From the NCBI GenBank assembly GCA_046758445.1, contig JBHIAE010000054.1, positions 1-19,038 on the forward strand: a DNA stretch of 19,038 nt. Reading direction: 5' to 3'. A model generated the notes under the pieces. The model was not told the DNA's origin and searched no databases. It saw nothing but the letters and a program-made list of their open reading frames with translations. Both the position numbers and the translations under genes were made by a program. Source of the DNA: Candidatus Thorarchaeota archaeon (GTDB taxonomy: Archaea > Asgardarchaeota > Thorarchaeia > Thorarchaeales > Thorarchaeaceae). Below are positions 1-18,130 of this stretch, piece by piece (the first letter of the stretch is position 1; each line of letters begins with the position of its first letter).

Positions 1-2429
1 ACACCAATCACTGCGGCACCGCCGAGACCAGCTACAACGTAGAGGGTCGGGATACCAAGGATGGTGCCTTCCCACCAATTGCCTGCACCGCCCAAGACCT
101 GGATTTGATAGCCTGGAGCGGAAAAGGTGTATCGTGCGGACCCAGTCCAGTTTCCTGCGTCACCCACCACGAATGATGCGAGTGTCGTGTTGAAGTAGAC
201 ACAGATAGCTGGCAGGTCGAGGTATAGACCAGGGTCAGTCGCAGCGACGTTATAGGTGATGACCCAAGACTCGCCAGGATTCAGGGTCGCTCTCTCCCAG
301 TAGAAGTCACGTTCCCCGTCCAGTCCAATGCTCATGCCATCGAGTACACCCAGGTCGTAGGCTATGTCATTGCCGTAGTTGTGAACAGTGATTGTGAACT
401 CTATCGTTTGACCTGATTCGACTGTCCTGTTGGCAGTGCCCTTTGTGACCACCAGATACGGTCCATCAAGGACCAGAGAGTCCGGTGACGCATCAAAGGT
501 CAGTGTCAGATCTGAGACATCCAATGCCATGGCTGACGTATTTGTCATTGGATCAAAGTTGACTGCACCCGTAAAGCCAATCCCGCCTATCAATGAAGCC
601 CCAAGGTCTGCCATCAGATAGGGTATGAACTGCTTTCTCAGGTTATCCATGTCCATCATGTTGACAAGAGCGGTCTTGATTCCAGCTAGATTGTCTGCTG
701 CCATCGCTGTCCAGAGGGCCGATAGTACAATCTCCCAATGATCATTGACGAAGGCCGCAATCTCCTCTTTGTTTTGGAACTCGGCAGGAAGATCGAATCC
801 GCTGAAGTCCTTGAGATAGGCCTCGATACCTTCTATGAAGGTGTTCAGATAGCCTTCCAATGCAACTGGGTCTGCATAGATGTCGTTATCAAGGATGTCC
901 AGAAGACCATAAGCGTCGAAGTATCTGACGAACGCCTGGGCAAGCGCAGCGAGTGGATTTGTTTGCGCAAGAGTGGCATCAATCCTACTGGTAAGAGCGT
1001 CTGCGTTCATGCCAATAGCGCCCATCAATTCTGCTAGCAGGTCAAGGTTTAGCTCTTTGAGAGGCGTTGGTGGAATCATCGTGGTGAAATCAACGTTTAG
1101 GATACTCTGCTTGAAGTCTGGGAATGGACCAACACTACCCCAAATGGCGTCAATGACATCACTGATGCCCTGTTCAATTTCGGTCATGTTAACCATTGAC
1201 ATTTCTTGATCTAGAAGCAGAGCGTACTCCCTAGGCAAAGCTGAGAGCATCATCCTCATAGCGTCACCGACAGTGGTGTTCTCTGGAATGTAAAGAGTTT
1301 CTCCCACCGTTAGGTTACTAGGAATTGGAAAGCTGTCATTGAAGACCATGAAGTTGCTTGGAAGCTCAGGGATTGAGAGAGACCCTGGAGTCGCACCCAC
1401 GATGAAAGACATCGAGTCTGAAGATGAGTCCTGTTGCATCTTGTTCTGTATGTTGCCTGTGTGACCAACGTGTTGCTTCAGCGAGTAGGTCTCATCTCCA
1501 GGTCCTTCCGTAACTGTCCCTGGAGCACCGAAGCCCACTTCCGCCATAACTCCAAACTGGACTGTCTCGACCAGGTCGGTGTGGCTCGTGTGAGCTCTGT
1601 GATAGGGCCTGTTTGTCGCCCCTAACAGCTCACCAACGAAGTCTGACTCAAAGCCAGTGTAGTTTGCTAGCCAATGGGCTGGAACGAATCCCTCGACTCC
1701 CTGAGTCATTAGGTCCGGCCAATCAGGGGAATCTGCAAGATCCATGAAACCACCCATGCCGGCCAGTCTGCTTCTGAAAGTAGTCATTGCAGTAGCACCA
1801 GGTGTGGCATCAAGGACATCGATGTACGTCATCATGTATCTTTTGACCACTATGTCAACCGGGACTGCAACCCCAAGGTCGAACCAATAGGAGTAGTTGG
1901 CGTCGATAGTGATGAACCTATCCATACTTAATCCGAGAGCGGTTTCATATTCTGTTACAAACTCATCAGCAATGGTAATCGCTTCAGTGATGCTCAAATC
2001 AGTACTGGCCGCAAGATCCCGGTTGAGAGGAACCTCTACAATAGATTCAACGACAATCTCCAAGACTGCCATTGGAGGTCCTACTGCGCCGTTCGGGAAC
2101 GGACTCAGTCCTGTGAAGAGAAACACTGACTGGCTCACATAACCATCATCGGTCGCCATCTGGTTCTGTACAATAGTCTCAAGAGGGTCGAGATGGGCAT
2201 AGCTGTAGTGAGTCTGGTTCTGTAATGACACAATAGCGTTGTAGACCCCACCCCATGGATCCACAATGGAGGCCAGTCCCTCAATCGTTGCGACGGACGG
2301 ACCATTGGACGCCGGGGCAAAAGAGTCCAAAACAACTGGCGTGCCAACGCTACTACCTGCGATTGCTGGCAACACAAGCGTGATGACAACGAACGCAGTT
2401 AGCAGCAGGTTGTCTTTTCTGTTGCTCAA
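1..2429 (-). CDS. Large secreted, C-terminally anchored surface glycoprotein with a membrane-proximal Ig-like (DUF11/CARDB-like) domain; 3' end runs off the window
   Basis: Not in the ORF track. Manual translation gives 809 stop-free codons from TTG at 2429 (AAGGAG 9 nt upstream; in-frame stop upstream at 2490-2492). N-terminal signal peptide MSNRKDNLLLTAFVVITLVLPAIAG. Eleven N-x-S/T sequons. Ig-like segment PYLVVTKGTANRTVESGQTIEFTITVHNYG...LNPGESWVITYNV. Hydrophobic anchor ILGIPTLYVVAGLGGAAVIG at the window edge. Confidence 0.9.
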   Translation of the reverse strand, partial: MSNRKDNLLLTAFVVITLVLPAIAGSSVGTPVVLDSFAPASNGPSVATIEGLASIVDPWGGVYNAIVSLQNQTHYSYAHLDPLETIVQNQMATDDGYVSQSVFLFTGLSPFPNGAVGPPMAVLEIVVESIVEVPLNRDLAASTDLSITEAITIADEFVTEYETALGLSMDRFITIDANYSYWFDLGVAVPVDIVVKRYMMTYIDVLDATPGATAMTTFRSRLAGMGGFMDLADSPDWPDLMTQGVEGFVPAHWLANYTGFESDFVGELLGATNRPYHRAHTSHTDLVETVQFGVMAEVGFGAPGTVTEGPGDETYSLKQHVGHTGNIQNKMQQDSSSDSMSFIVGATPGSLSIPELPSNFMVFNDSFPIPSNLTVGETLYIPENTTVGDAMRMMLSALPREYALLLDQEMSMVNMTEIEQGISDVIDAIWGSVGPFPDFKQSILNVDFTTMIPPTPLKELNLDLLAELMGAIGMNADALTSRIDATLAQTNPLAALAQAFVRYFDAYGLLDILDNDIYADPVALEGYLNTFIEGIEAYLKDFSGFDLPAEFQNKEEIAAFVNDHWEIVLSALWTAMAADNLAGIKTALVNMMDMDNLRKQFIPYLMADLGASLIGGIGFTGAVNFDPMTNTSAMALDVSDLTLTFDASPDSLVLDGPYLVVTKGTANRTVESGQTIEFTITVHNYGNDIAYDLGVLDGMSIGLDGERDFYWERATLNPGESWVITYNVAATDPGLYLDLPAICVYFNTTLASFVVGDAGNWTGSARYTFSAPGYQIQVLGGAGNWWEGTILGIPTLYVVAGLGGAAVIG

Positions 2430-2438
2430 TTTGGAATT

Positions 2439-2444
2439 CTCCTT
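2439..2444 (-). promoter_or_regulatory. Shine-Dalgarno-like site (AAGGAG) for the TTG start at 2429
   Basis: Minus strand reads AAGGAG-AATTCCAAA-TTG. Confidence 0.6.
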
Positions 2445-2652
2445 AAGGCATTCCTGAACGCTCGGTTCATGGCGAACGTTTGGCGCATGTCAAACACCGT
2501 CACAATCTCTTATGAACTGTGTGGTGTACGCCAAACTCTCTCGAACGACAGGCACATGCCTAACTCACATTAATTGTAAAACATCCCCAAAGTAGGTATT
2601 TGAAGTTTTGTCGCTCATCTCGACGCCCCAATGTGTGGTAGACTGCACAATT

Positions 2653-3939
2653 CTAATCTTGCTGTTCATGGTCGTCCAAGAGGTCTTCTGACGGTTCAAC
2701 TGAGCTTTCCTCGTCTGATGAGCGGTCCGAATCGGGCAATTCTTCAATTTCCTTTTCTTCAAATAGCTCTTCCTCCTCGACATCATCTGCGGGCTCAAGT
2801 TCTTCTTCCTCTGTTGGAATCCGCAGGTCCTCAGGAATCTCGGGAGGCTCAGGTGCCCTGCCAATCCTCCTGAGATACACGAGTTCCATGACCAGCGCCA
2901 CAAACGGGAAGATGTAGAGTTTGATCAGGTCGCCAAAGGAGGCTCCGATGTCAATCCCGATCCCCTGATTGCCCAGTCCGAATATGATCGGAAAGATTGC
3001 ATCCGAGAAGTAGTACCCCGATGCCAGAAAGAAGGTGAATGTGGCTGCTACGTCAGCGGAGATCTTCCACCTAGTTTCAAGTCCCTCTCTGCTAGCCAGC
3101 GATCGCCCGACCGAACTCATAGTATAGAAGAGGAAGAGTATTGAAACTCCGATGCCCACAAGGTCTAGTCCGAGCGCTGCCCCCTGACCTGCGTTGTAGA
3201 TGAAGTAGGATGAGTATAAGGAAACAAAGAGTCCTATGACAGCGAGATTCACCAGCGTTGGCTTATCGCGATGGCGGACCATGATGATTCCATTCAGGAA
3301 ATTGAAGCCCATGACCAATAGAGCTCCAGGGATGATCGCGGCAAGAAGCCAGATGTTTGTGATAAACAGACCCTGCAGGATTCCTACATAGACAAGAGTT
3401 GCGACGACCACAAAGTAGCTGAAGAGATTGGAGAATCCAGCAAGTCCTCTAACGATTCTTCTAACCTCTGTGCCAGCGGCGACGTCAGCATACCTAAGAC
3501 TTGTCCTCGTACTGTAGTAGGCCTGGAAGGCAATCCAGCCCACAAAGGCGACTCCGAATATGAGAATCTCCAATATGGGCATAGCGAAGAGGATGAAGAC
3601 GAACAGGACTGCACCACTGACTATCATCCAGGGAATGACTCCAACGAGTGATTTGGCATAGGACTCTTCACTCGCTAGGAACCTCTGAAGGCCGACGAGG
3701 GAGAGAAGCACCGCCAAGAGGAAATAGATGGGCCATACTCCAGCCAGCAAGATAAAACCTGGAAGAAGTGGAGCCACAAAGGCTGGACCGTAGACTGCAA
3801 GAAGGGTTGCCCCAATGCGACCTAGCAGTGAGATGATGACAGCCCCAATCACGAAGAGAATAGTCAACCATCTTAGCCGGTTGGATGCCCAGAATAGCTT
3901 GAGTCCTTCGATAAGTCCTGACAATATTGGAACGTCCAT
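2653..3939 (-). CDS. Polytopic membrane protein of unknown function (~10 TM) with a highly acidic C-terminal tail
   Basis: About 10 hydrophobic segments; 32 of the last 66 residues are D/E. Start moved from 3945 to ATG 3939 because AAGGAGGT (3947-3954) is 7 nt from 3939 but only 1 nt from 3945. Confidence 0.85.
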   Translation of the reverse strand: MDVPILSGLIEGLKLFWASNRLRWLTILFVIGAVIISLLGRIGATLLAVYGPAFVAPLLPGFILLAGVWPIYFLLAVLLSLVGLQRFLASEESYAKSLVGVIPWMIVSGAVLFVFILFAMPILEILIFGVAFVGWIAFQAYYSTRTSLRYADVAAGTEVRRIVRGLAGFSNLFSYFVVVATLVYVGILQGLFITNIWLLAAIIPGALLVMGFNFLNGIIMVRHRDKPTLVNLAVIGLFVSLYSSYFIYNAGQGAALGLDLVGIGVSILFLFYTMSSVGRSLASREGLETRWKISADVAATFTFFLASGYYFSDAIFPIIFGLGNQGIGIDIGASFGDLIKLYIFPFVALVMELVYLRRIGRAPEPPEIPEDLRIPTEEEELEPADDVEEEELFEEKEIEELPDSDRSSDEESSVEPSEDLLDDHEQQD

Positions 3940-3946
3940 CTCCATT

Positions 3947-3954
3947 ACCTCCTT
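3947..3954 (-). promoter_or_regulatory. Strong Shine-Dalgarno site AAGGAGGT
   Basis: Minus strand AAGGAGGT-AATGGAG-ATG; fits a downstream cistron in an operon with the thioredoxin gene. Confidence 0.7.
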
Positions 3955-3990
3955 CAGCCTTCCCCTTGGGGACTGAGCCCGCTTTTATTT

Positions 3991-4464
3991 CTACGCTCCC
4001 GCCTTCTTGAGGACATAGACAAGCTCAGCTTCCAATGTAGGCTTGACGACCTGCTTCTCAACAATTGTGGCGACTCTGTTTCCTTGAGAGTCGAAGATCT
4101 CAATCCAAGGTATCGCAGTTGCTCCCCACTCCTCGATCTCAGGCGGAGATGGGGGTACCCTCCATTGATGGTCTGGGTCCAGTGGGGCAGTCTTGATTCC
4201 TCCGAAGACTCGGATGTCCAAGCCGATTTCCTCTTCAAGTTGTGCCAACACGAGTATCGCTTTGACACAGTCCTTGCACCAACCAGCACTCATCACTACT
4301 ATCGTCAGCCCTGTGGTCAGGTTACGGAGCTCTTCCGTACTCACTGGGTCTAATTCGTATGACTGATACTCTGCCATGAAGCGATCGATGTGCTTGCTTT
4401 CGATGCTTTCTAAGTACTCTTTCGCTGTCTTGGTCCGGCTTCGGATGTTCTCCAAGTCTGCCAT
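3991..4464 (-). CDS. Thioredoxin-family protein (WCxDC type)
   Basis: Strand IVVMSAG followed by WCKDC, later AIPWIEIFD (cis-Pro strand). Start set at ATG 4464 (MADLENIR, 157 aa); the longer track start runs through the divergent promoter region. Confidence 0.85.
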   Translation of the reverse strand: MADLENIRSRTKTAKEYLESIESKHIDRFMAEYQSYELDPVSTEELRNLTTGLTIVVMSAGWCKDCVKAILVLAQLEEEIGLDIRVFGGIKTAPLDPDHQWRVPPSPPEIEEWGATAIPWIEIFDSQGNRVATIVEKQVVKPTLEAELVYVLKKAGA

Positions 4465-4573
4465 GGCAGATGAATCGCGGTATGTTCTGCTCAAAAAACA
4501 TTCTGTAGGGATACCGGGGGATGGTGGCCGATGAATTGATTTGTCGGAATCCACAGTATATCGCATCAACCCT

Positions 4574-4589
4574 GAAAAGCGTTTAGAAG
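4574..4589 (+). promoter_or_regulatory. Putative BRE/TATA-like promoter of the GTPase gene (leaderless or short leader)
   Basis: GAAAAGCG-TTTAGAAG; the T-rich box starts 29 nt before GTG 4611. The same AAAGCGTTT 9-mer occurs at equivalent spacing before 8152. Confidence 0.45.
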
Positions 4590-4610
4590 ACTCAATCAAG
4601 CAGGAACTAG

Positions 4611-5168
4611 GTGGTGTGTAGCCTGCCTACAGAGGTCTACAAAGCTATCGTACTCGGCCCACCCAACGTAGGAAAGAGTTCTCTAATCAGAAGATATCAG
4701 TCTGGTGAGTTCTCTGAAACCTATACTGCCACTGTGGGGCTCGATATGAAGGCAGCCACCTTCGATTTTCCTGACGGGTCTGTAGTTCTAACAGTTGTTG
4801 ACATTGGAGGGCAGGAAACATTCACCGCGCTAAGGAGTCGTTTCTTCGCGGGGGCCCATCACTTGATTCTCGTGTTTGACAAGACAGATCGATCGACCTT
4901 CGATCTGATTCCGGAGTGGCACGAATCGCTTACCAAGAATGTGAACATCCCCGAACATCTATTTCCGAAGGGGTCACTGGTTGGAAACAAGGCGGACCTG
5001 GAGGATCAGATTGTGGTCACCACAGAAGAAGCGAAGCGACTGGCCACAATCCTTGTTCTGGAGTACTTTGAGGCTAGCGCGAAGACTGGCCTAAATGTGG
5101 CCGAGATCTTCATGCGCGCGGCTTCAGAATCTCGCCGAGTTGCCAGAGGTCTAAGTACACAGGACTGA
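4611..5168 (+). CDS. Ras-superfamily small GTPase, Rab-like
   Basis: G1 GPPNVGKS, G2 YTATVG, G3 DIGGQE, G4 NKAD, G5 EASAK. Degenerate RabF-like motifs VGLDM, FFAGA and LVFDKT. No C-terminal Cys. Confidence 0.95.
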   Translation: MVCSLPTEVYKAIVLGPPNVGKSSLIRRYQSGEFSETYTATVGLDMKAATFDFPDGSVVLTVVDIGGQETFTALRSRFFAGAHHLILVFDKTDRSTFDLIPEWHESLTKNVNIPEHLFPKGSLVGNKADLEDQIVVTTEEAKRLATILVLEYFEASAKTGLNVAEIFMRAASESRRVARGLSTQD

Positions 5169-5280
5169 AACGTGTACTTCCTGAGGCCCGTTGACGATTT
5201 ATGGGTCAGGTCCCAAGAGTTAAAACGCAGCTCCTCACGAGCAGTCTCGTCACATGACAATCTGGGAAGGCTAGGGTATC

Positions 5281-6621
5281 ATGTCGGTAGCAATTGAGGA
5301 AATCCGGAAACGAAAGTGGCTTGCGATATATGCGTTCTTAATCATGGATGTCCTACAGATTCTGTTTGTGTCGATACTCAACGTAGACGAGCTGAACCCA
5401 TATGTGGTGGGTATTGACCTCTCACGGTCGAGTCCAATTGCTTCGACATCACTATTTCTGACAATAGTCCTTCTCCAGCTGTTTGTGGTGTATTACGTAG
5501 CCTACGCCATGCAGCGCAGTCCAGAGCTAAGACCTCTGCATCCACATTTTGACAGCAAGAAGAAGTGGGAGTGCCGATACTCAAGAGACGAGATTGTTAG
5601 TTGGACGCTTGAACAGGCTGAAAAGAGCAAAGTCAGTGTGCGAAAGATCTACTTAGTGAGCTCACCTCTTCCAAATGCCTTCACCTTCAGTCTGCCTGGC
5701 ATGGGGTCTATAGTAGCAGTCTACAGCAATATTCTCGATATCCTCGAGCCGAATGAAGTGAAGGCAATAGTCGCCCACGAGGTCGGTCACATTTCCAATC
5801 GTGACTCGATAATTCAGATATTTGTCAGGATGCCTTCGTTCTTTGTTGACACAATCTATCTCTACATCTACCTGAGACTGGCCATGGGAGTGTCGAATGC
5901 GCTCTTCTTGTACGGTGACCCAGTGCTAGCCGGAATCAGACTTGGCGTTCTTCTCGTGTTCTTCGGGTTCTCGAGATTCCTTTCAATTGTTTCGCAAGCC
6001 GTTATGCAGAAGGCGTCTCGTGAGGCCGAGCTTCTGTCCGATTATCATGCGGCAGAGATTGTTGGTGTAGAACCGACCATCAACGGCCTTGTTCGGCTCG
6101 GGCAAAGATCTGAGGCCGTCAGTGCTTTGATTGATGAGATTCGATGGCTTGAGTCCCTAAATCCAGAACGCAGCGGAGCCCTGAGAAGAAAGGAACTGGT
6201 CCGCATGATTGAGTTGTATCCTTTAGACGGCATTGACGAGGACAATGCGAGAGAGATGGCGCCCTGGGTGTTTCTCTCAACGAGACTAAGGCATATGAGA
6301 GAAGTCTACGGTCTGAGTCTGACTGATGACCAGATCAAATCGGCAGTGGAGCCGGCCTTAGATGTTCTCGCTGAGAAGCGTTCAAAGAAGAAAGAAGAGC
6401 CTGAAGAGAAGAAGGGGCCTGGCACAATAGACTGGCGCACAGTTGACTACGACGGGGATCGCAGACTATCGACTGAAGAACTCAAAGACCTACTAGAGCT
6501 CCTACGCAAGAATCCGAAGAAGTTGATGTTTGACAGCGAATTGAGCATGAGTCTTTGGGCCATGAGCCACCCTGACTTCCGAAGGAGAGTACTCACTGTA
6601 GCGGATGCATTTGGCCTATGA
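5281..6621 (+). CDS. M48 (HtpX/Ste24-like) membrane zinc metalloprotease with an EF-hand-containing insertion
   Basis: Two N-terminal TM helices, PNAF, HEVGH (5776-5790), two further TMs, SREAELLSD (third ligand Glu at 6028-6030) and a C-terminal SHPDFRRRV motif. EF-hand loop DYDGDRRLSTEE at 6445-6480. Confidence 0.9.
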   Translation: MSVAIEEIRKRKWLAIYAFLIMDVLQILFVSILNVDELNPYVVGIDLSRSSPIASTSLFLTIVLLQLFVVYYVAYAMQRSPELRPLHPHFDSKKKWECRYSRDEIVSWTLEQAEKSKVSVRKIYLVSSPLPNAFTFSLPGMGSIVAVYSNILDILEPNEVKAIVAHEVGHISNRDSIIQIFVRMPSFFVDTIYLYIYLRLAMGVSNALFLYGDPVLAGIRLGVLLVFFGFSRFLSIVSQAVMQKASREAELLSDYHAAEIVGVEPTINGLVRLGQRSEAVSALIDEIRWLESLNPERSGALRRKELVRMIELYPLDGIDEDNAREMAPWVFLSTRLRHMREVYGLSLTDDQIKSAVEPALDVLAEKRSKKKEEPEEKKGPGTIDWRTVDYDGDRRLSTEELKDLLELLRKNPKKLMFDSELSMSLWAMSHPDFRRRVLTVADAFGL

Positions 6622-8031
6622 GCCTGCTGATGCCGTTCTCTGTTCTTCAGCCGGACTCAGGCCGCGAAAAGCCGAGATGATTCCTGCCAGGAGAGCCAGA
6701 ACACAGAATGTCCAGATAGTCCACTGGAACGATTGTGTGTAAGGTAAGATGTCATGATATACCATGAAGACTGTTGTCACCAATGCCGTTGCGATTGAGA
6801 AGCCTGTGGTTCTCGCTATGTTTGTCAGTGCACTTACTACTCCCATATATTCACGTGGTGCCGATGTCATTATGAAATTCCCATTGGCGACAGAGAAGGT
6901 TGAGAGTCCGAAGCCCATGATAACGATTCCAACAATGATCAGCGGGATATCTGGAATCACAAGTCCGATGAACAACAGACCCAGAAGTTGGATAACAAGT
7001 CCAAATACGGTCTGCTTTCTAGCCTTTACCCGCTCTGACACTAGACCGGCAAAGGGTCCCACTACAGAGATCACTATTGGATGTGCAGTCAGAATGAGTC
7101 CTGTCAGCGACTGAGAGAACCCCAGTTCCTCCTGCAGAAAGAAGGGAAAGAGGAAGATGAGAGGCACTATTGCCATGTAGGACAAGAGTGCCGAGAAGAT
7201 GCTAGCAGAAATCCGTTTGTCTGCGAGCACGCGAGTAGGGACAATTGGTGCTTCAAACCTCGTTTCCCTCATAATGAATGCGATCAAGGAGATAATGATT
7301 ACAGATGCTAGGAATACTGAGATGACCAAGTGTGCAGTTCTCGCCACTGAAACGAGATAGATTAGCATAAAGAGAAACGTGAAAAACAGCCCGGCGCCCA
7401 GTGTGTCGAATTTCGTTTCATGCACCAGTTCGGTTTCCGGCACAATGCTCTGCACAACCAGAAATCCAACCACCCCGATTGGGAGGTTGATCAGAAAGAT
7501 GCTTGGCCAACCGAAGTATTGGCTCAACAATCCGCCAATAACAGGTCCAAGACCCAAGGCCGCCGCCAACACAACAGAGTTCAGGCCAATGGCGCGTCCA
7601 CGATTCTGCGGAGTAGTAAAGTATGTGACCAGGGCCAGTCCATTGGCGGTCATCATGCTGGCTCCAAAGGCCTGGAACACTCTAGAAGCCACAAGGAATG
7701 CCAAGTCCGGACTCAATGCGCAGAATAGAGACCCTGTGATGAAGATTAACATGCCAGTCTGAAAGATCCTCGTCTTTCCGTATCTATCTCCCAACTTGCC
7801 CATCAATGGCATGAGAGAAGTGATGACGAGTAGGTAGGCCAGCACAACCCACTGAATCTCAGTCATAGTGACTCCAAGACTTCCTGACATTGTGACAAGT
7901 GACACATTCACAATTGAGGCATCGAGAGCCCCGAGGAATATCCCGAAACTAGTAGCGGCGACAATCTTGTAGGGGCCCGGAAGAGATGGCTCTCCGATGT
8001 GTGGCGACTGCTGGCTTTCAGGGTGAGTCAT
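6616..8031 (-). CDS. MFS drug:H+ antiporter, DHA2 (EmrB/QacA-like, 14 TM)
   Basis: LDASIVNVSL, GKLGDRYGKTR (motif A), GLGPVIGGLL (motif C), WPSIFLINLPIG. Start set to ATG 8031 (MTHPES). Overlaps the convergent M48 gene by 6 nt. Confidence 0.92.
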   Translation of the reverse strand: MTHPESQQSPHIGEPSLPGPYKIVAATSFGIFLGALDASIVNVSLVTMSGSLGVTMTEIQWVVLAYLLVITSLMPLMGKLGDRYGKTRIFQTGMLIFITGSLFCALSPDLAFLVASRVFQAFGASMMTANGLALVTYFTTPQNRGRAIGLNSVVLAAALGLGPVIGGLLSQYFGWPSIFLINLPIGVVGFLVVQSIVPETELVHETKFDTLGAGLFFTFLFMLIYLVSVARTAHLVISVFLASVIIISLIAFIMRETRFEAPIVPTRVLADKRISASIFSALLSYMAIVPLIFLFPFFLQEELGFSQSLTGLILTAHPIVISVVGPFAGLVSERVKARKQTVFGLVIQLLGLLFIGLVIPDIPLIIVGIVIMGFGLSTFSVANGNFIMTSAPREYMGVVSALTNIARTTGFSIATALVTTVFMVYHDILPYTQSFQWTIWTFCVLALLAGIISAFRGLSPAEEQRTASAGS

Positions 8032-8116
8032 CGATAGTCGTGCCTCTTCTGTGAGATTAGACGCAGCACAGCCAGCCTCCAATTAAGGGTATGGCTATGT
8101 TGTGATTTCACCTTAC

Positions 8117-8130
8117 GAAAGCGTTTTCTT
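8117..8130 (+). promoter_or_regulatory. Putative BRE/TATA-like promoter (leaderless)
   Basis: GAAAGCG-TTTTCTT; the T-rich box starts 28 nt before ATG 8152 and matches the element at 4574. Confidence 0.4.
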
Positions 8131-8151
8131 CGTGTGGGAATCGTCATCCTC

Positions 8152-8967
8152 ATGGTCGACTTCTCTCTGCTTCACAAGAAGGCGCGGCATGACATCCGTG
8201 TATGTCTTCAGGTCTGGTCTGAACTACTTCGCGAGAGTCTGGGAGAGCGCCTCAAGTATGCCTACGCCAAGGGATCGGCTGTCAAGACATGGGACTCCGC
8301 AATTGACTACGTTCCAGTAGTAAGTGATGTGGACATACATGTCTATCTCAGTGATGACGCCGGACTCTTTGCTGGATATGATGATGCATTCAAGCGGTCG
8401 ATGGAACTGTCCAGCTTGTTTGAGAGAGCTTTCTATCAGCGGGAACCCGACCCACTTCATTTACCGAGGACTCAGATAGTTCTTCTAAATGATGCGTTAA
8501 AGCAGAAGGGATTCACCATGCCCCGGCTGAGTGACGTTCAACCGATTGTTGGAAATCCTGTCTTCCCTTCCCAACCATCTCCGGAAACCACTCGACATTA
8601 CGATCTGCTAAACTTGAGAGAGCTAGGGGAATACTTGGATGCTGTTCCCCTAAAGACAGTAGACCGTGCGGGATTCGATTTCTGGTCATTGATTCGAACG
8701 ATGATATGGAGAGTTTCCCCAACTCCAGTCCGATTACTCACACAGAGGCATGAAGACCCAATGGAGGTATGGAGCTGGAACCGAACCCGAATTGCAGAGG
8801 AACTAAAGACTCACGGTCACAATATCTTGGAAGGGCGCTATCGGGGATTCTATGAGGCGGGCTGGCGCTTGTTCATCTTAGGGTTCACGAGCTCGGAGGA
8901 CTTCCGTGGGATGGTCTATAATGGATACTATTTGCTAAGGGGCTGCCGTGATGCTGTTGGCAACTAA
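8152..8967 (+). CDS. Putative nucleotidyltransferase (DNA polymerase beta superfamily fold) with a helical C-terminal domain
   Basis: hG[GS]...SDxDh signature: YAYAKGSAVK...SDVDIHVYL (8272-8334). ATG 8152 preferred over GTG 8134 because of promoter spacing. Confidence 0.65.
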   Translation: MVDFSLLHKKARHDIRVCLQVWSELLRESLGERLKYAYAKGSAVKTWDSAIDYVPVVSDVDIHVYLSDDAGLFAGYDDAFKRSMELSSLFERAFYQREPDPLHLPRTQIVLLNDALKQKGFTMPRLSDVQPIVGNPVFPSQPSPETTRHYDLLNLRELGEYLDAVPLKTVDRAGFDFWSLIRTMIWRVSPTPVRLLTQRHEDPMEVWSWNRTRIAEELKTHGHNILEGRYRGFYEAGWRLFILGFTSSEDFRGMVYNGYYLLRGCRDAVGN

Positions 8968-9003
8968 CTGGTGGCCTGTTCGTACCTATTTGGTTATATC
9001 TGA

Positions 9004-9843
9004 GTGAAGAAAAGACCACAAACAGTCCCCTTGACTCCGGGAGGCTTCTGCTTGAAACCGTACAGGACACTGCCTACAAAGAAACTCGAAACGGATGGCT
9101 TTAGGAACGAGGACGATCTGGTCGCAATAGAAACCGCGATGGAACTGAGATTGGAGAAGGAGTTCATCGCTGCATTTGTATGTAGCCCTGGTCTTCAGAA
9201 GGAACTGGCATTGGGCTACATGCTCACGTCGGGAATCCTTCATTCTGTTGATGAAATGGCCAGCGTCAAGTGTCTGAACAATGTATGCACGGTTAGACCG
9301 GCAGAAGGTGTTCCCATCCGTTCAAGGCACCGTCCACTTCACGTGAGGAGAGTCGTCACTACAGAGTGTTCGGCGCCAGAAATCCTTCAGGAGCTCAGAA
9401 CTGCATCTGGCATACCGGAGCTTGACTTTCAAATCTCCATCCCAATACATGAGCTGTATGATGCAACGAAGTTGATGAGAGAGTCTCAAGAAATTCGTCA
9501 GAAGACAGGAGCCACACATGCAGCACTTCTCAAAGACACTGGGACCGGCAGCTATTCTGTAGTTGAGGACTTGGGGCGACATACTGCCGCAGACAAGTGC
9601 ATTGGACTAGCCGTCAACAAAGGATATGACCTCAAGTCCTCCATCCTGCTGACCAGCGGCCGTCTGACAGCCGATATCGTCAGCAAGTGTGCCTGGGCTT
9701 CAATCCCATTGCTTGCCTCCTCCGCGGTAGCCACTGACGCTGCAATTAAGTTCGCTCAACGAGGAAACATCACCCTAGTTGGTTCGCTTCGAGGCCAACG
9801 AATGAGGCTCTACAATGAGGGAGCAGCGGAGTTATCAGTCTGA
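9004..9843 (+). CDS. fdhD: Formate dehydrogenase accessory sulfurtransferase FdhD family
   Basis: SPGLQKELALGYMLTSG, TGATHAA, EDLGRHTAADKCIG, TSGRLTADIVSK and NITLVGSLRG are typical FdhD blocks. Confidence 0.9.
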   Translation: MKKRPQTVPLTPGGFCLKPYRTLPTKKLETDGFRNEDDLVAIETAMELRLEKEFIAAFVCSPGLQKELALGYMLTSGILHSVDEMASVKCLNNVCTVRPAEGVPIRSRHRPLHVRRVVTTECSAPEILQELRTASGIPELDFQISIPIHELYDATKLMRESQEIRQKTGATHAALLKDTGTGSYSVVEDLGRHTAADKCIGLAVNKGYDLKSSILLTSGRLTADIVSKCAWASIPLLASSAVATDAAIKFAQRGNITLVGSLRGQRMRLYNEGAAELSV

Positions 9844-9968
9844 AGATTCCTTCGGACATAGCGGCCGCGCACCACAACGAAGGTCGTTTCAATTGGAAAT
9901 CGGTCTACATTACGGAGAAACCTACAGAGGCTAATTCTTATCAATACACCACTCGGTGTAGGTGCGTC

Positions 9969-10478
9969 ATGAAGCGCATCTTGGTTCTTGGTCCGAGTGG
10001 CTCAGGAAAGTCAACATTTGCCAAGAATCTTGCCGAGCGTCTAGGTCTCCCTTGGATCAATCTGGACTCTCACTATTGGAAACCCAATTGGCAAGAAACG
10101 CCAGAACAAGAGTGGAGAAAAGTGGTCGGGCAGCTCATTCTGCAGGATGAGTGGGTGATGGATGGCAACTACTCCAAGACATTGGAAATGAGGATAAAGA
10201 GGGCAGACACAGCTGTCTTGTTGGACGTTCCAAGAAGAGTTTCATTCTGGAGAGTGTTGAAGAGACGCATCAAGCATCGAGGAGAGGTGAGATCTGAATT
10301 AGCTGAGGGCTGCTATGAGAAGATCGACTTGGACTTCTTGAGATGGATATATGGGTACCCCAAACGGACTAGACGAGAGGTTGATAGAATCCTTGCTGAG
10401 AACTCTGATGACACAAATGTGGTGGTGCTGAAGGGTTCTAAGGAAGCAGCGGACTATCTTTCCAATTTTCCCAGTTAG
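9969..10478 (+). CDS. Small P-loop kinase, adenylate-kinase-like ('topology modulation protein' FlaR family)
   Basis: KRILVLGPSGSGKST, LDSHYWKPNW, WVMDGNY, RADTAVLLD, GCYEKIDLDFLRWI. Confidence 0.85.
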   Translation: MKRILVLGPSGSGKSTFAKNLAERLGLPWINLDSHYWKPNWQETPEQEWRKVVGQLILQDEWVMDGNYSKTLEMRIKRADTAVLLDVPRRVSFWRVLKRRIKHRGEVRSELAEGCYEKIDLDFLRWIYGYPKRTRREVDRILAENSDDTNVVVLKGSKEAADYLSNFPS

Positions 10479-10531
10479 ACCAGTTGTATCTACCGATAGT
10501 ATCTTAGGTGCGATAGTTCGGCTGACCGTTC

Positions 10532-11434
10532 ATGCAGGTCACCCCTGAGCTCATCCTTGGCACGACAGTAGGCTTTGCCGCATCAGCGATGTGGGCTGTT
10601 TCCGTTGTTGTCTACAGGTCACAGAGCAAAGAGATACGCCCGTTGGCAATCAGCTCTATCAAGATGTGGGTGGCCCTGGGATTCATGTCCTTGATTGTAG
10701 TTTTGCCGTTCAGACCAGAGCCATTCACGATGCTACCAGAGGCCGTTCTCTTTCTTGCACTTTCTGTTACGTTTGGAGCCGTGATTGGTGACACGCTTTA
10801 CCTCATCAGCCAAGAGAGGATTGGTGTTTCCTATGCCTTTCCAATCGCAATGTCCTTTCCAATTCTCACCTATTTCTTGGCAATAGTCTTTCTTGGCGAT
10901 ACTCTGGTGCCTTCGAAACTGCTAGGTACCGTGGTGACTGTTACCGGATTAATACTCATTTCGCGAGAGCAAAACGGGAAAAGCGAGGATGGCTCTGCCG
11001 CGAGATTTGACCCGTTAGGTATCACTCTAGCATTCCTGACCATGGTCCTCTTTGCTAGCGCCACAGTCATGCTAGACAAAGGTGTTACTCACGTTGACCC
11101 GATTGACGCCAATTTCGTGAGGGTCGTATTCGGTTCCTTAGAGTTCGTACCGCTCTTTGTTGTGGCACGCCAATACGGAATGCCAATGCCCACAAAGCGC
11201 GCCGCCAAGATCGTGGCTTCTGCAGGCCTTTTTGGAATGGCGATAGGGTCATTGCTCTACGTCTGGATGGTCAAACTCATTGGTGCGGCCATGGGTGCAG
11301 TTGTAGGGTCCACGTCGCCTCTCTTTGCAGTTCCAATCTCGGTCTTCTTCCTCAAGGAGAAACTCACAGCCTTGGCAGGGGTTGGCGTCCTGGCAACGGT
11401 GGCTGGAGTCATACTAGTCGTGGTGGCATTCTAG
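10532..11434 (+). CDS. DMT superfamily (EamA-like) transporter, 10 TM
   Basis: 300 aa with two 5-TM halves; GDTLY...IGVSYA in the first half and SPLFAVPISVFFLKEKL in the second. Confidence 0.9.
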   Translation: MQVTPELILGTTVGFAASAMWAVSVVVYRSQSKEIRPLAISSIKMWVALGFMSLIVVLPFRPEPFTMLPEAVLFLALSVTFGAVIGDTLYLISQERIGVSYAFPIAMSFPILTYFLAIVFLGDTLVPSKLLGTVVTVTGLILISREQNGKSEDGSAARFDPLGITLAFLTMVLFASATVMLDKGVTHVDPIDANFVRVVFGSLEFVPLFVVARQYGMPMPTKRAAKIVASAGLFGMAIGSLLYVWMVKLIGAAMGAVVGSTSPLFAVPISVFFLKEKLTALAGVGVLATVAGVILVVVAF

Positions 11435-11466
11435 TAGCTAAGGCTCTATTGACGGCACTCCTGAGA

Positions 11467-12393
11467 TCACTCTGCAGAAGCTAGCTGGACGTAGACCTCA
11501 AAGACGTCGTTCCCACGTGCAAACCTGACCCTGAGCTTCTCTCCAACGCGTTTGCCAAGTATCTTGCGGCGAAGGTCATCCATGGTGTCAACATCATTAT
11601 CATCGATGCCGACAATGACATCTCCTGCCCTCAATCCAGATTCCGCTGATGGCCCCCTTGGCACCTGCACTATCAGGGCGCCCTTGTCAACTGGAAGCCT
11701 ATAGTGCGAGGCCACTCGTTTATCTAGGGTCACTCCCATTATTCCCATCCATGGTGTCCTAACGGTCCCTGTTTCGACCAGTTCATTGAATACGGCCTTG
11801 ATCATGTCTACCGCTATTGCGAAACCGATGCCCTGGCTAAATGGAATCATTGCAGTGGGTACGCCAATAAGATTGCCTCCCGAGTCAACAAGAGCACCAC
11901 CACTATTGCCAGGGTTGATCTCCGCCGAGGTCTGAACCAACCCCTCAAGGAAGGAGTCCCTACTCTGAATCGTCCTGTCTACCGCACTCACCATCCCAAA
12001 TGTCACAGTCGTGCCTAGACCTAGTGAGTTGCCTATGGCTATGGCAAACTGTCCAACCTTGAGTGCCCCGGAGTCGCCCAACTCAATGGGTGTAAGATTC
12101 GCTGCGTCGACTTTGAGAACAGCCAAGTCTCTGAGTTTTGACTCGCCTACCACAACGGCCTTGAGCGTTCGCCCATCGTTCAAGGTGACCTCAACGTCCC
12201 TGGCTCCTGCCACAACATGGGCATTAGTGACAACAAAGCCCTCCTCCGTCAAAATGACCCCGGATCCCTGGCCCTGAACAGGTACGCGTCGTGAGAGTTG
12301 ATCTCTCGCAAGTCTTGTTGTGGAAACGCTAACAACGCTGGGAACAACTTTCGCAACAATATCTACAAGTCTTTTCTCAAGTTTGGCAAGCAT
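11467..12393 (-). CDS. htrA: HtrA/DegP-family trypsin-like serine protease with one PDZ domain and no export signal
   Basis: GSGVI, TNAHV (His), DLAVLKV (Asp), INPGNSGG (Ser). PDZ: PWMGI...GPSAESGLRAGDVIVGID. Confidence 0.93.
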   Translation of the reverse strand: MLAKLEKRLVDIVAKVVPSVVSVSTTRLARDQLSRRVPVQGQGSGVILTEEGFVVTNAHVVAGARDVEVTLNDGRTLKAVVVGESKLRDLAVLKVDAANLTPIELGDSGALKVGQFAIAIGNSLGLGTTVTFGMVSAVDRTIQSRDSFLEGLVQTSAEINPGNSGGALVDSGGNLIGVPTAMIPFSQGIGFAIAVDMIKAVFNELVETGTVRTPWMGIMGVTLDKRVASHYRLPVDKGALIVQVPRGPSAESGLRAGDVIVGIDDNDVDTMDDLRRKILGKRVGEKLRVRFARGNDVFEVYVQLASAE

Positions 12394-12686
12394 GGTTCAC
12401 ACTGTGGCATTAACTATGGTACTCAGTTATTAGTATGAGCATCGGACAATTCGGCTGTGATTCCACCTTGATTTGGCCTTTGCTGAAACGGCAGGTCAAG
12501 AGCATCACTCTTCGTCCGTGACAGGACGATTCTTCTTGGCAAGTATGTGCTTGGATAGCATACTCAGCCGAAACCTGTACGAAAACCTCAGACATTGAGT
12601 AAACTCGTACTGTTCTGAACGCAAAGACAACCAAGGAATCCTTTTCACATCTAGACTAGTCTTCTTTCTGTAAGTGATGTTGGACG

Positions 12687-14966
12687 ATGGAATACAGTGG
12701 ACGTCTAATAGCAAAGGTTGCTGGCATCGTTTCAGTGGCTGTGATTGCTGCTGTCTTGGCTATTGGAGGTGCCGGACTTGCTTCGCTGACGCCCACAGCC
12801 AGAGTCGGTGTACACTCACTTCTTTCGTACTGGGCTGCAATTCCAGTCGCAGTCAGTATACTTGCGCTCGCGAAACGCTCGTCCAAATCACACGTTGCGC
12901 TATGTTCTGCACTTCTATTTCCGACATTTGTTCACATGGGCAGTGCCATAATGTACCGACTTGATCTTCTCCAATCTGGTGTGGTTAGGCAGGTGCCAAA
13001 TCTCGTAGGTGACGTATTTGAGTTGACTGCGTTTGGTCTTCTTCTAATGGCCGCAGTATGGTTGTCCACTATTCCTAAGAATAGCGCGTTGGGAATCAAT
13101 GGTTTCGCGGCAGCCATTGTCCTGGTGTTCATTCAGCTGGCAGTGTACGGCTTACTGTGGTTCTTTGTCTTTCCCGCGATGTCCACCATCGTTTTGGTGG
13201 CCTTTGGTGTCATCATTGGAATCATTGGTTTCTCCGCATTCCTGGTCAATGCATATCTCTCCCTGCGGTTGCAGTACGAACATCTCCTGATTGATGCGGG
13301 ATATCTTGCTAGCGCTCTTGTCCTACTGGGATTCTCCACAGCAGTTACGGCAGCTGAGATAATACAGCCCACATCATCTTGGATCTATGCTGAGAATCTT
13401 CAGATAGCTGCATTCATCTTGCTCGGACTTTCGTTAGGTGTTCCTTTCCTCAAGAGGTCCGGGCTCAATGGCATGACGGCGCATCTCATTGTTGCAGGAC
13501 TAGCGATAATAACCTACCTGCCGTTCACGATAACAATCTCCATAGAAGTTATGCAGCTCAACGCAGTCATTGAGCCTCTGAACCGACTCGCCTTTTCCAT
13601 CATTCACATTGGTGCTGGCTCATTATCAGCTATGATGGCTATTCTCCTGCACACATTTTCCAAACGGCATCCTTCACGGAACCACTACGCCCTCATACTT
13701 CTTTTTGCGCTTTGGGCAGGGGTAGCAGCTGTATCAGTTCTGGCTGTCATCATCCCCGAATTGACACCATTGGGTGAACCCATAGTCCCCTATGTCGTAG
13801 GTAGTCTACTCTCATTCCCTCTCCTAGTCTATGCGGTGAGGTGGACCACTCCTGATCTAAGAGCTGCAGTTTCGCGCCGCCCTAGCCTTCGGCTGTTCAT
13901 AGGAGTGGTGCTTCTTCTCGCCGCAGTTGTCACCGGCGAAGCTGTCAACCAGTTAGTTCTGCAAAGATACGGAGGGCTCAGCGGCAACCCGGCCAGTAAC
14001 TCCATCCTCCTGGGCACCAGCCTGGTGAGTATGTTGGCTTTTGCCGTCTTAATCTTTGTCCTTGCTGAACAGTCTCGAGGTCGGATTTCCATTGAGATTT
14101 ACGCAGCATTCTTCCTTTCCATGTGGATTGTACCTAACATTCTCAAGAGTTACTATACAATGTGGACAGCTGGATGGTGGGTTTCAGAGGTTCTCATCTT
14201 CATAGGAATGTTGCTGGGTCCTCCACTGATGGGTCTGTTCTATGTCCGAGCCTTGCAGGACGCGGAAGACTCCCACCACAGGGCGAACCTGTATGCCGAT
14301 CTACTGATGCACGACGTAAGTAACTACAATCAGATGCTATTGACCGCTCTAGAGTTGCTTGGTGAGAAGGACGTTTCTGACATGCTGCGAAACAGGGTAT
14401 CAGGAGACGCAAGGCAGGTAATCTCCTTCGCGGACCAGTTGATAGCAAATGTCAGACTGATTGGAAGAACGGACAGACTTGTTCAGAGTACTCTTAAACC
14501 GACGAATCTCGTGGCCACGGTCATAGAGGCACTTGACATAGTGACACAGGGTGCGATTGGAGAGGACATTGAGCTTCGGCTAAGAACAGATAGCGGACAC
14601 GGATTCGTTCTCGCTGACGAGGCTCTGAAGTATGTCTTCATGAATCTCCTCTATGTGGCCTTTCAACAGCCAATTGAGAAGAAGACCATCCTCATTGAGA
14701 TTGATACCTATGCTGATTCTGGACTGTGCCAATGGAGAGTTCGTATGAGCGTTCCTGGTCTGTGGATAGACCAGAGGGACAGAGAAGAACTGATGCATAG
14801 GGACGCCGACACATATAGTAGCAGCGCGCTTGGACTACTTGTAGCCCGCTTGATAACCGAGTCTCTTGGGGGCTCTTTCACTATGACTGACAGACTAGAA
14901 CAGGAATTCCATCAGGGGACTGTTTTTGTCGTGACGCTACCGGGTCACGAGAAACCTGAAGATTGA
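12687..14966 (+). CDS. Membrane sensor, histidine-kinase-like (~16 TM + HisKA + degenerate HATPase_c)
   Basis: About 520 aa of hydrophobic helices, H-box LLMHDVSNYNQ (His at 14310-14312), then VFMNLL...LGLLVARLITESLGG...GTVFVVTLP. Confidence 0.85.
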   Translation: MEYSGRLIAKVAGIVSVAVIAAVLAIGGAGLASLTPTARVGVHSLLSYWAAIPVAVSILALAKRSSKSHVALCSALLFPTFVHMGSAIMYRLDLLQSGVVRQVPNLVGDVFELTAFGLLLMAAVWLSTIPKNSALGINGFAAAIVLVFIQLAVYGLLWFFVFPAMSTIVLVAFGVIIGIIGFSAFLVNAYLSLRLQYEHLLIDAGYLASALVLLGFSTAVTAAEIIQPTSSWIYAENLQIAAFILLGLSLGVPFLKRSGLNGMTAHLIVAGLAIITYLPFTITISIEVMQLNAVIEPLNRLAFSIIHIGAGSLSAMMAILLHTFSKRHPSRNHYALILLFALWAGVAAVSVLAVIIPELTPLGEPIVPYVVGSLLSFPLLVYAVRWTTPDLRAAVSRRPSLRLFIGVVLLLAAVVTGEAVNQLVLQRYGGLSGNPASNSILLGTSLVSMLAFAVLIFVLAEQSRGRISIEIYAAFFLSMWIVPNILKSYYTMWTAGWWVSEVLIFIGMLLGPPLMGLFYVRALQDAEDSHHRANLYADLLMHDVSNYNQMLLTALELLGEKDVSDMLRNRVSGDARQVISFADQLIANVRLIGRTDRLVQSTLKPTNLVATVIEALDIVTQGAIGEDIELRLRTDSGHGFVLADEALKYVFMNLLYVAFQQPIEKKTILIEIDTYADSGLCQWRVRMSVPGLWIDQRDREELMHRDADTYSSSALGLLVARLITESLGGSFTMTDRLEQEFHQGTVFVVTLPGHEKPED

Positions 14967-15086
14967 GAAGGTCTAGAAGCATCAAGTAACTCTTCAAACC
15001 AGCTGTGCCATTCAGAACAGTCTTGTGGTGCCTGACGGCGACGCTGTTGTTGCGCTGATACAAACTGAGAGGTAGTCGACTGCATA

Positions 15087-15188
15087 CTTGGCCAGTGGTA
15101 GTCTGACGATGAAGCTGGCACTTTTGGGGTGCTTATCACTTACTATATCTTCGACATCTACTTCCCTACCAACGCGTTTGACTATCCT
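15087..15188 (-). pseudogene. Remnant of the 3' end of a histidine kinase (HATPase_c C-terminal strands)
   Basis: Minus-strand frame with no start of its own reads RIVKRVGREVDVEDIVSDKHPKSASFIVRLPLAK. It aligns without gaps to the neighbouring kinase tail (LITESLGGSFTMTDRLEQEFHQGTVFVVTLPG). Confidence 0.6.
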
Positions 15189-17818: not shown

Positions 17819-18130
17819 TTGAGGTTCTCCTCCTAACAAGCGCCGTATCCATTCCGTCATCCAAACTAGGGTTTAACATTTGTGGGGAATCATTGCGCAG
17901 GCCTACCTGAGAAATGGTGGGTTGTGAAAGAATCCTGAAGAGGCCGTGCCGCACAAAGAGGTGAAGTGAGCCACTCAGACTGCTGACGTGAGCGGACGAC
18001 AACTTCCTTGTGATTCCCAAGGCACATTCATCATCCAAAGATACATCTTTCCCCTGTTTCAGTCCATCAGCATCATGCAAATAAGGACAGAACGCATTAG
18101 CCAAAGTCTGTGAGGTAGAGGAAGTTGGGT

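Follow-up and report, generated by a model that had tools for sequence, protein, structure and literature searches.

A conserved EF-hand upstream of the active-site plug in an HtpX-type membrane protease from a Thorarchaeota archaeon: a candidate calcium-switched protease

HtpX (MEROPS M48B), the inner-membrane quality-control protease of Escherichia coli with homologues in archaea, is the described system closest to the protein reported here, a predicted membrane zinc protease encoded by a Candidatus Thorarchaeota archaeon (GenBank assembly GCA_046758445.1, contig JBHIAE010000054.1, positions 1 to 19,038 of the forward strand; "the window" means this whole stretch of 19,038 nucleotides). The window protease shares with HtpX the M48 domain match, the HExxH motif, the glutamate that serves as third zinc ligand and the terminal HPx4R motif, as well as two N-terminal transmembrane helices, a second hydrophobic pair and a predicted cytoplasmic active site, and its best sequence match among solved structures is the HtpX domain from Vibrio (3cqb). 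It differs from HtpX in what precedes the HPx4R motif, where it adds a helical hairpin with a probable relic EF-hand before it and a canonical EF-hand after it; to our knowledge, the sequence of E. coli HtpX contains none of the three.

The HPx4R motif is conserved throughout PF01435 and acts as an active-site plug in BepA, a periplasmic M48 protease of E. coli, in which the substrate groove is filled by the plug and His246 provides the fourth zinc ligand (PMC7950410); the H246N substitution appears to deregulate the enzyme (PMC7950410). The BepA plug is held in place by Arg252, which lies in the active site, and by Asp205 (PMC7950410; bioRxiv 10.64898/2026.07.01.735768). BepA is also the only member for which a release mechanism is known: on meeting a stalled BAM complex, BepA inserts its lid into the outer membrane, and this frees the plug (bioRxiv 10.64898/2026.07.01.735768). 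BepA residues H246, P247, R252 and D205 correspond to H430, P431, R436 and D254 of the window protease. BepA is soluble and has a TPR domain, whereas the window protease is membrane-bound and carries an EF-hand directly upstream of the plug, a difference that suggests another, ionic trigger.

On sequence grounds, the window protease is an HtpX-type (M48) membrane zinc protease with intact catalytic residues (HEVGH, Glu250) and predicted activity. A Pfam scan places Peptidase_M48 (PF01435) on residues 107 to 274 (E = 3.3e-18, 66.6 bits, cut-off 20.3), with the match breaking off at model position 165 of 186 and leaving 155 residues before the HP motif that displace the C-terminal part of the model. 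Relative to HtpX, the stretch from the third zinc ligand to the plug is longer by about 125 residues, and the distance from HExxH to HP is 264 residues, compared with 169 to 171 in nine short bacterial HtpX proteins and 148 to 197 in other Asgard M48 proteins. This is in line with the initial annotation, which had been made from the sequence alone and described an M48/HtpX-type membrane protease in which additional sequence separates the third zinc-ligand helix from the terminal SHP; Pfam, hydropathy and spacing all agree with it. The strings that it quoted are found where it placed them (REAELLSD at residue 247, SHP at residue 429, and both candidate EF-hand loops), and the interval that it singled out, 6115 to 6573, corresponds to residues 279 to 431.

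With respect to topology, lysine plus arginine counts (4 at the N-terminus, 1 in the loop between residues 34 and 55, and 14 in the segment from 78 to 185) fit the HtpX arrangement, in which the positive-inside rule predicts the N-terminus, the catalytic part and the entire C-terminal region to be cytoplasmic, as had been assumed earlier for the catalytic domain. The AlphaFold2 (AF2) model of the full-length protein (predicted local distance difference test [pLDDT] 86.6, predicted template modeling score [pTM] 0.84) has helices at residues 3 to 32 and 52 to 78 at the N-terminus and at residues 185 to 210 and 214 to 261 for the second hydrophobic pair, and it weakly matches ZMPSTE24, Ste24 and HtpX-domain structures, as expected. 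The window protease is the single PF01435 match in its genome (G000, 3.25 Mb, 92.7% complete). We listed 120 homologues at 55 to 93% identity, nearly all of them full-length; among those with names, most carry the label Thorarchaeota and a few that of Promethearchaeota or Odinarchaeota, in agreement with the archaeal host that had been proposed from the sequence.

The insert holds two candidate calcium-binding loops. The second, DYDGDRRLSTEE (residues 389 to 400, nucleotides 6445 to 6480), had been called a near-canonical EF-hand, and the call stands: judged by its sequence, the motif is an EF-hand homologous to known EF-hands and under strong selection, because its conservation, the Pfam matches of its family and its profile matches to PDB sequences all point that way. 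Across 121 homologues, D1, L8 and E12 of the loop are 100% conserved, positions 3 and 5 are Asp or Asn in 100%, and S9 is present in 99%, so that the alignment check proposed earlier for the acidic ligands came out in their favor. In an alignment of 91 diverse sequences, W385, R386, D389, L396 and E400 are at least 90% conserved, level with H166, E167, H170, E250, H430, P431 and R436; across Asgard and bacterial relatives, the EF-hand equals the catalytic residues in strength of conservation. The strict ligand set (D / D-N / D-N-S / E) is retained in 50 of 58 distant sequences (50%-identity cluster representatives, query included).

Profile-based searches give a consistent picture. EF-hand_1 matches 114 of 119 family members (best E = 1.6e-5), EF-hand_6 matches 111 and EF-hand_7 matches 101. 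Searched against PDB sequences, a profile of the insert retrieves calbindin D28k (E = 7.6e-13), secretagogin (6e-8) and calmodulin (approximately 3e-4), always through the same stretch, with alignments that span W-R-x-x-D...E plus the exit helix. Calbindin D28k and secretagogin share the pattern W-R-K-[YF]-D-x-D-x-S-G-x-[IL]-x-x-x-E-L-x-x-[FL]-[IL]-x-x-L with the window EF-hand; both are soluble proteins with six paired EF-hands, whereas the window protease has one live hand and the similarity covers only about 40 residues. Against 1.84 billion cluster representatives, the same profile matched 64 proteins, mostly M48 proteases of 430 to 500 residues with the same layout; seven of the 64 are multi-EF-hand repeat proteins that align only over the EF-hand stretch. 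A search with residues 378 to 446 as query returned only close relatives. Furthermore, DYDGDRRLSTEEL satisfies PROSITE pattern PS00018, with oxygen donors at loop positions 1, 3, 5 and 12 (Glu) and a hydrophobic residue at position 8. By itself this pattern occurs at chance level (7 matches in the genome, counting open frames of 150 or more residues, about 1.05 million residues in total, versus 2 to 7 in shuffles), and we dropped it as stand-alone evidence for an EF-hand; the significance of the EF-hand comes from conservation and profile searches, not from the pattern.

The EF-hand lies close to a motif that offers it a concrete mechanical target. The terminal SHP had been located correctly in the initial annotation, which missed its role as part of the autoinhibitory plug (PMC7950410). 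SHPDFRRR spans residues 429 to 436, and H430, P431 and R436 are each 100% conserved in the 121 homologues. Asp254 stands four residues after Glu250, just as D205 of BepA stands four residues after E201, and both are 100% conserved in the window family. From this conservation of the motif we infer an intact plug, with Asp254 and Arg436 as its holders. The end of the EF-hand exit helix is 20 residues from His430.

On this basis, we propose the window protease as a candidate calcium-switched protease in which the EF-hand acts on the plug, a reading that we consider to have an even chance of being correct. In such a mechanism the EF-hand would bind Ca2+, with the glutamate at loop position 12 favoring Ca2+ over Mg2+; binding would reorient the exit helix, and the short connector, which is conserved, would relay this motion to the lid, to the plug or to the two together and so alter the activity of the protease. 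Damaged membrane proteins would then be licensed for degradation when cytosolic Ca2+ rises, as might happen in sea water or sediment rich in Ca2+ once the membrane leaks, although activation and inhibition are both conceivable outcomes. The genome encodes three frames of the Na_Ca_ex family (Ca2+:cation antiporter [CaCA] transporters) and two P-type ATPases of about 950 residues with Cation_ATPase_N, which could form a Ca2+ export toolkit; a low resting cytosolic Ca2+ level, a precondition of sensing, is therefore plausible.

A more ambitious version of this proposal extends it to a large HtpX clade of bacteria and archaea. Release or locking of the plug by the Ca2+-bound EF-hand would be the physiological switch of that clade, and Asgard archaea would have elaborated the clade into a long form that is dimeric and pairs a relic with a live EF-hand. 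In prokaryotes, Ca2+ entering the cytosol would then report membrane damage and be coupled directly to the quality control of membrane proteins, a system predating and paralleling Ca2+-triggered membrane repair and calpain and rhomboid regulation in eukaryotes. We regard this extension as possible but rather doubtful.

Several observations weigh against a calcium switch in the window protease. Scored as a single sequence, the protein reaches 17 to 20.6 bits with the Pfam EF-hand models, under their gathering thresholds of 25 to 30; of the domain scan that had been suggested, the PS00018 match and the family-wide Pfam matches thus hold, and the single-sequence score does not. Glycine at loop position 6 is found in 22 of the 58 distant representatives, and the window protease has Arg394 there, as the initial annotation had pointed out; arginine occupies this position in 113 of 121 homologues (93%), a property of the Thorarchaeota branch, and its presence in place of glycine may weaken or abolish binding. 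The helix-loop-helix that had been expected in a predicted structure is present (residues 385 to 410 of the AF2 model), with an entering helix of only four residues, which is unusually short. DSSP assigns no bridge between the two candidate loops or at loop position 8, but does so at residues 382 and 415; in the model, the EF-hand appears to be unpaired, or partnered only by the relic 95 residues upstream, with no loop-loop beta bridge. HExxH is lost in seven long-form representatives (P0126, P0137, P0139, P0155, P0157, P0158 and P0179), probable pseudoproteases whose HP motif is often degenerate too; three of the seven keep the strict EF-hand ligands and three have lost them. Since dead paralogues can retain the ligands, the EF-hand may serve something besides catalytic control. 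The coupling of EF-hand to plug, finally, is suggested by sequence proximity and co-conservation.

These points bear on the alternatives in different ways. The main rival is a constitutive structural metal site, in which the EF-hand would permanently hold Ca2+ (or Mg2+) and stabilize the plug-bearing C-terminal region without any signaling. Strong conservation is equally compatible with such a site, as is the retention of ligands in catalytically dead paralogues; the fixed distance to the plug in the short-form relatives described below (35 residues in 120 of 120) is what a rigid element would show, and the genome holds no EF-hand pair protein (PF13499) at E <= 0.01 and no other sign of an EF-hand-based Ca2+-signaling toolkit. 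We nevertheless hold this explanation to be unlikely: the predicted cytoplasmic location and the Ca2+ exporters imply sub-micromolar Ca2+, at which a single hand with Arg at position 6 would hardly be saturated, and most structural Ca2+ sites belong to extracytoplasmic proteins. Alternatively, metal binding could have been lost in the Thorarchaeota branch, leaving an EF-hand-derived fold as a packing or interaction element (substrate or partner docking, or lid support). Arginine at position 6 and also at position 7 (93% each in the branch), the very short entering helix, the single-sequence scores and a neighboring relic loop, an example of EF-hand decay within the same protein, would all suit such a fold. 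Against it, the oxygen-donor positions 1, 3, 5, 9 and 12 are still 99 to 100% canonical in 121 sequences, and PS00018 permits arginine at position 6; the retention of every donor position, in contrast to the decayed loop, argues for binding, and we judge the loss of binding distinctly improbable. A chance match to PS00018 in an acidic helical insert could appeal to the chance-level frequency of the pattern in the genome, and yet it has next to no probability and is effectively refuted by conservation across Asgard and bacterial relatives at 21 to 93% identity, by the profile match to solved EF-hand proteins and by the EF-hand_1 matches across the family.

The combination of an EF-hand with HtpX is, on sequence evidence, widespread in bacteria and archaea, neither specific to archaea nor rare, and the earlier suggestion of an archaeal peculiarity has to be abandoned. 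Searching GTDB species genomes with an EF-loop peptide, we located nine bacterial loci (Planctomycetales, Omnitrophota, Stahlbacteria and other metagenome-assembled genomes [MAGs]) that encode short-form HtpX proteins of about 320 residues with HExxH, REYFAD and STHPNMLKR and with an EF loop 35 residues before HPx4R. The nearest database relatives of one short-form HtpX all carry a PS00018 loop at exactly this distance (120/120); they are named "zinc metalloprotease HtpX", and some have a precomputed EF-hand_5 match. EF-hand_5 is likewise labelled, automatically, in 77% of the members of a 75-member HtpX cluster of the ESM Atlas, mainly from Methanobacteriota. Short-form proteins (Omnitrophota, Planctomycetales, Stahlbacteria, Deltaproteobacteria) share the M48 core and the alignment over EF loop plus plug with the window protease, and differ from it in having one EF-hand with Gly6 and no hairpin, whereas the window protease has a hairpin flanked by relic and live hands and a spacing from EF-hand to plug of 41 residues.

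Distant long-form relatives share 21 to 41% identity with the window protease, and the labelled ones come from Hodarchaeales, Odinarchaeota, Promethearchaeota and one Deltaproteobacteria MAG. Of 400 Asgard genomes, 100 encode the long form, among them 63 of 85 in the family of the window archaeon and, in three other families, 21 of 22, 11 of 12 and 2 of 2; in the largest family it occurs in none of the 135 genomes. Other Asgard M48 genes (frames of 572 to 850 residues) have normal spacing and no EF-hand.

Comparison of the two forms also bears on the first loop, NPERSGALRRKE, which had been proposed as a degenerate EF-hand. Its pattern NPERxGx[IV][ST]xxE is conserved within the Thorarchaeota family only and is not found in distant long-form relatives, and no EF-hand hidden Markov model matches it in the window protein or in the 119 family members. 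A profile-profile alignment pairs EIRWLESL-NPERSGALRRKE-L with EIRELSEL-DLDRSGTIDPDE-L, the canonical hand of short-form HtpX; the whole alignment of the family with short-form HtpX has an hhalign probability of 99.2. In slices of 39 columns, the relic aligns with the short-form hand at 83.5% (E = 8e-6) and the live hand at 91.5% (E = 9e-7); two control slices reach 0.1 to 0.5% against the short-form hand, and a helical slice reaches 33% against the live hand, so that numbers from such small segments are soft. The first loop is probably a decayed EF-hand rather than a metal site: a relic receives moderate support from the profile alignment, and the ligand positions are lost. When the long-form family profile is applied to short forms, one block of it aligns over the catalytic core and a second over the EF-hand plus plug, and the hairpin is skipped; the single short-form hand has an N-terminal context like that of the relic and a C-terminal context like that of the live hand. 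This suggests a composite insert (post-ligand helix, relic, hairpin, linker and live hand) that arose by internal duplication or by insertion.

In the AF2 model, the third-ligand helix is followed by a helix at residues 263 to 292, a loop at 293 to 302, a helix at 303 to 311, the hairpin and a disordered linker (372 to 381). The insert thus runs in the order relic EF-hand, helical hairpin, linker and live EF-hand, the last about 30 residues before the plug histidine. The EF-hand itself is modelled as a helix at 385 to 388, a loop at 389 to 397 and a helix at 398 to 410 (pLDDT 87 to 94), followed by a low-confidence stretch at 423 to 428 and the HP motif. Modelled alone, the insert shows the same layout (pLDDT 85). 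Foldseek returned no match of the insert model to the PDB at E <= 0.001, with EF-hand proteins (SOS3, CDPK1, calmodulin) appearing only at E = 0.9 to 3 and a root mean square deviation of about 17 A; wide and second-look VIA-align runs gave best Z scores of 5.2 and 4.6, all for generic helical arrangements.

The long-form protease is probably a homodimer that, in our models, forms through the long-form-specific hairpin. Two copies of the insert modelled with Ca2+ gave an interaction prediction score from aligned errors (ipSAE) of 0.48 in two runs and 0.45 in a third, versus 0.00 in three controls, with contacts that agree by at least 94% and a partner pLDDT of at least 67. Of 30 known homomers, 20 attain this ipSAE mark, as does 1 of 23 single chains; our run departs from that calibration in its custom alignment and riding Ca2+, and the score may be inflated by surfaces that became exposed when the insert was excised. 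The confident interface comprises residues 290, 293 to 296, 308 and 328 to 363, which belong to the hairpin and the relic loop and lie outside the live EF-hand. Dimerization through the EF-hand (cross-dimer pairing as in penta-EF-hand proteins) is unsupported, the EF-hand residues lying outside the confident contacts.

Proteases set by Ca2+ at fused EF-hands are known from eukaryotes. In Drosophila Rhomboid-4, cytosolic EF-hands gate an intramembrane protease, and calpain carries penta-EF-hand domains; the idea shared with the window protease is an analogy only, since these are cysteine and serine proteases versus a zinc M48 enzyme here, with unrelated folds and no sequence relationship outside the EF-hand. 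No description of the combination came up when full texts were searched for calcium or EF-hand in connection with HtpX or M48, as the initial annotation had surmised. Within the scope of these searches, what is new is the EF-hand in HtpX/M48 proteases; the M48/HtpX kind of protease was known already, and Ca2+ binding and Ca2+ regulation of the window protease are proposed from sequence. For the activation of HtpX-type M48 proteases, an EF-hand 35 to 41 residues before the plug offers a simple trigger candidate in hundreds of bacterial and archaeal HtpX proteins. If the proposal is true, these proteins would be among the few conserved candidates for cytosolic Ca2+ sensors in prokaryotes. It would also provide an EF-hand native to Asgard archaea, as opposed to the published derivation of key EF-hand Ca2+-binding components of the eukaryotic endoplasmic reticulum Ca2+-stores system from a bacterial source (PMC7016017). 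The coordinates of all features are collected in Table 1.

Table 1. Features of the window protease gene and putative Ca2+ transporters of the genome (positions in the window unless a genome contig is given)
Feature	Residues	Position	Strand	Basis
HtpX-like M48 zinc metalloprotease with EF-hand-bearing insert, whole gene		5281..6621	+	446-aa open reading frame, Pfam PF01435
Two N-terminal transmembrane helices; loop between them predicted outside the cell	~12-34 and 55-77	5314..5511	+	Hydropathy, K/R counts
HEVGH zinc-binding/catalytic motif (H166, E167, H170)	166-170	5776..5790	+	>=90% conserved, 91 diverse sequences
Second hydrophobic pair, equivalent to HtpX hydrophobic regions 3 and 4 (M48 lid region)	185-242	5833..6006	+	Hydropathy
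REAELLSD, third zinc ligand Glu250 and Asp254	247-254	6019..6042	+	E250 and D254 100% in 121 homologues
Probable relic EF-hand loop NPERSGALRRKE, between helices 263-292 and 303-311	294-305	6160..6195	+	In register with short-form HtpX EF-hand
Helical hairpin, long-form-specific, predicted homodimer interface	320-343 and 349-371	6238..6393	+	AF2 pLDDT ~90
Lys/Glu-rich linker, variable columns	372-381	6394..6423	+	pLDDT <50 at 373-379
EF-hand helix-loop-helix; Ca2+-type loop DYDGDRRLSTEE at 6445-6480, exit helix 398-410	382-410	6424..6510	+	PS00018, conservation, Pfam, PDB profile matches
Connector (P412, K414, F417, E420) and flexible hydrophobic stretch 423-428, from EF-hand to plug		6511..6567	+	Conservation; pLDDT <50 at 423-428
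HPDFRRR, HPx4R motif (H430, P431, R436), predicted autoinhibitory active-site plug of M48		6568..6588	+	100% conserved
CaCA transporter frames and P-type ATPases		G000:C14:28625-29659, C28:14636-15088, C11:28065-28499, C5:5622-5825, C17:53777-53974		

With respect to the gene neighborhood, a Ras-family small GTPase gene (4611 to 5168, + strand; Pfam Ras E = 2.3e-39) ends 112 nucleotides upstream of the protease gene. It is preceded by a divergent pair on the - strand (2653 to 4599) that encodes a thioredoxin-like protein (Thioredoxin_9, E = 5.5e-10) and a 430-residue putative membrane protein without a Pfam match; both genes stay beside the GTPase and the protease across the family, as seen by tblastn at seven loci. 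On the other side, a convergent major facilitator superfamily (MFS) transporter gene (6616 to 8082, - strand) overlaps the 3' end of the protease gene by 6 nucleotides (6616 to 6621), leaving no room for a terminator. The order of a leftward thioredoxin-like gene, the rightward GTPase and protease genes and the leftward MFS gene recurs in 6 of 7 sampled genera of the Thorarchaeota family, sometimes with about 3 kb inserted; the GTPase gene was not found in the seventh (L002). This order is absent from other Asgard families with the long-form protease. Because it fails in those families and the synteny is only family-level, we dropped a functional module of GTPase and protease. A second quality-control-type protease is encoded in the window 5 kb downstream (11467 to 12393, - strand), an HtrA-like trypsin-PDZ serine protease (Trypsin_2 E = 7.5e-32, PDZ_2 E = 5.3e-13).

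Besides the protease, the genome-wide pattern scan returned a single candidate Ca2+-loop protein. It is a 229-residue open frame on the - strand near a contig end (G000:C81), with two PS00018 loops, DSDADGIVDWYEL and DTDGDNFLDGYEV, 23 residues apart; instead of EF-hands, these may be repeats of the dockerin or thrombospondin type.

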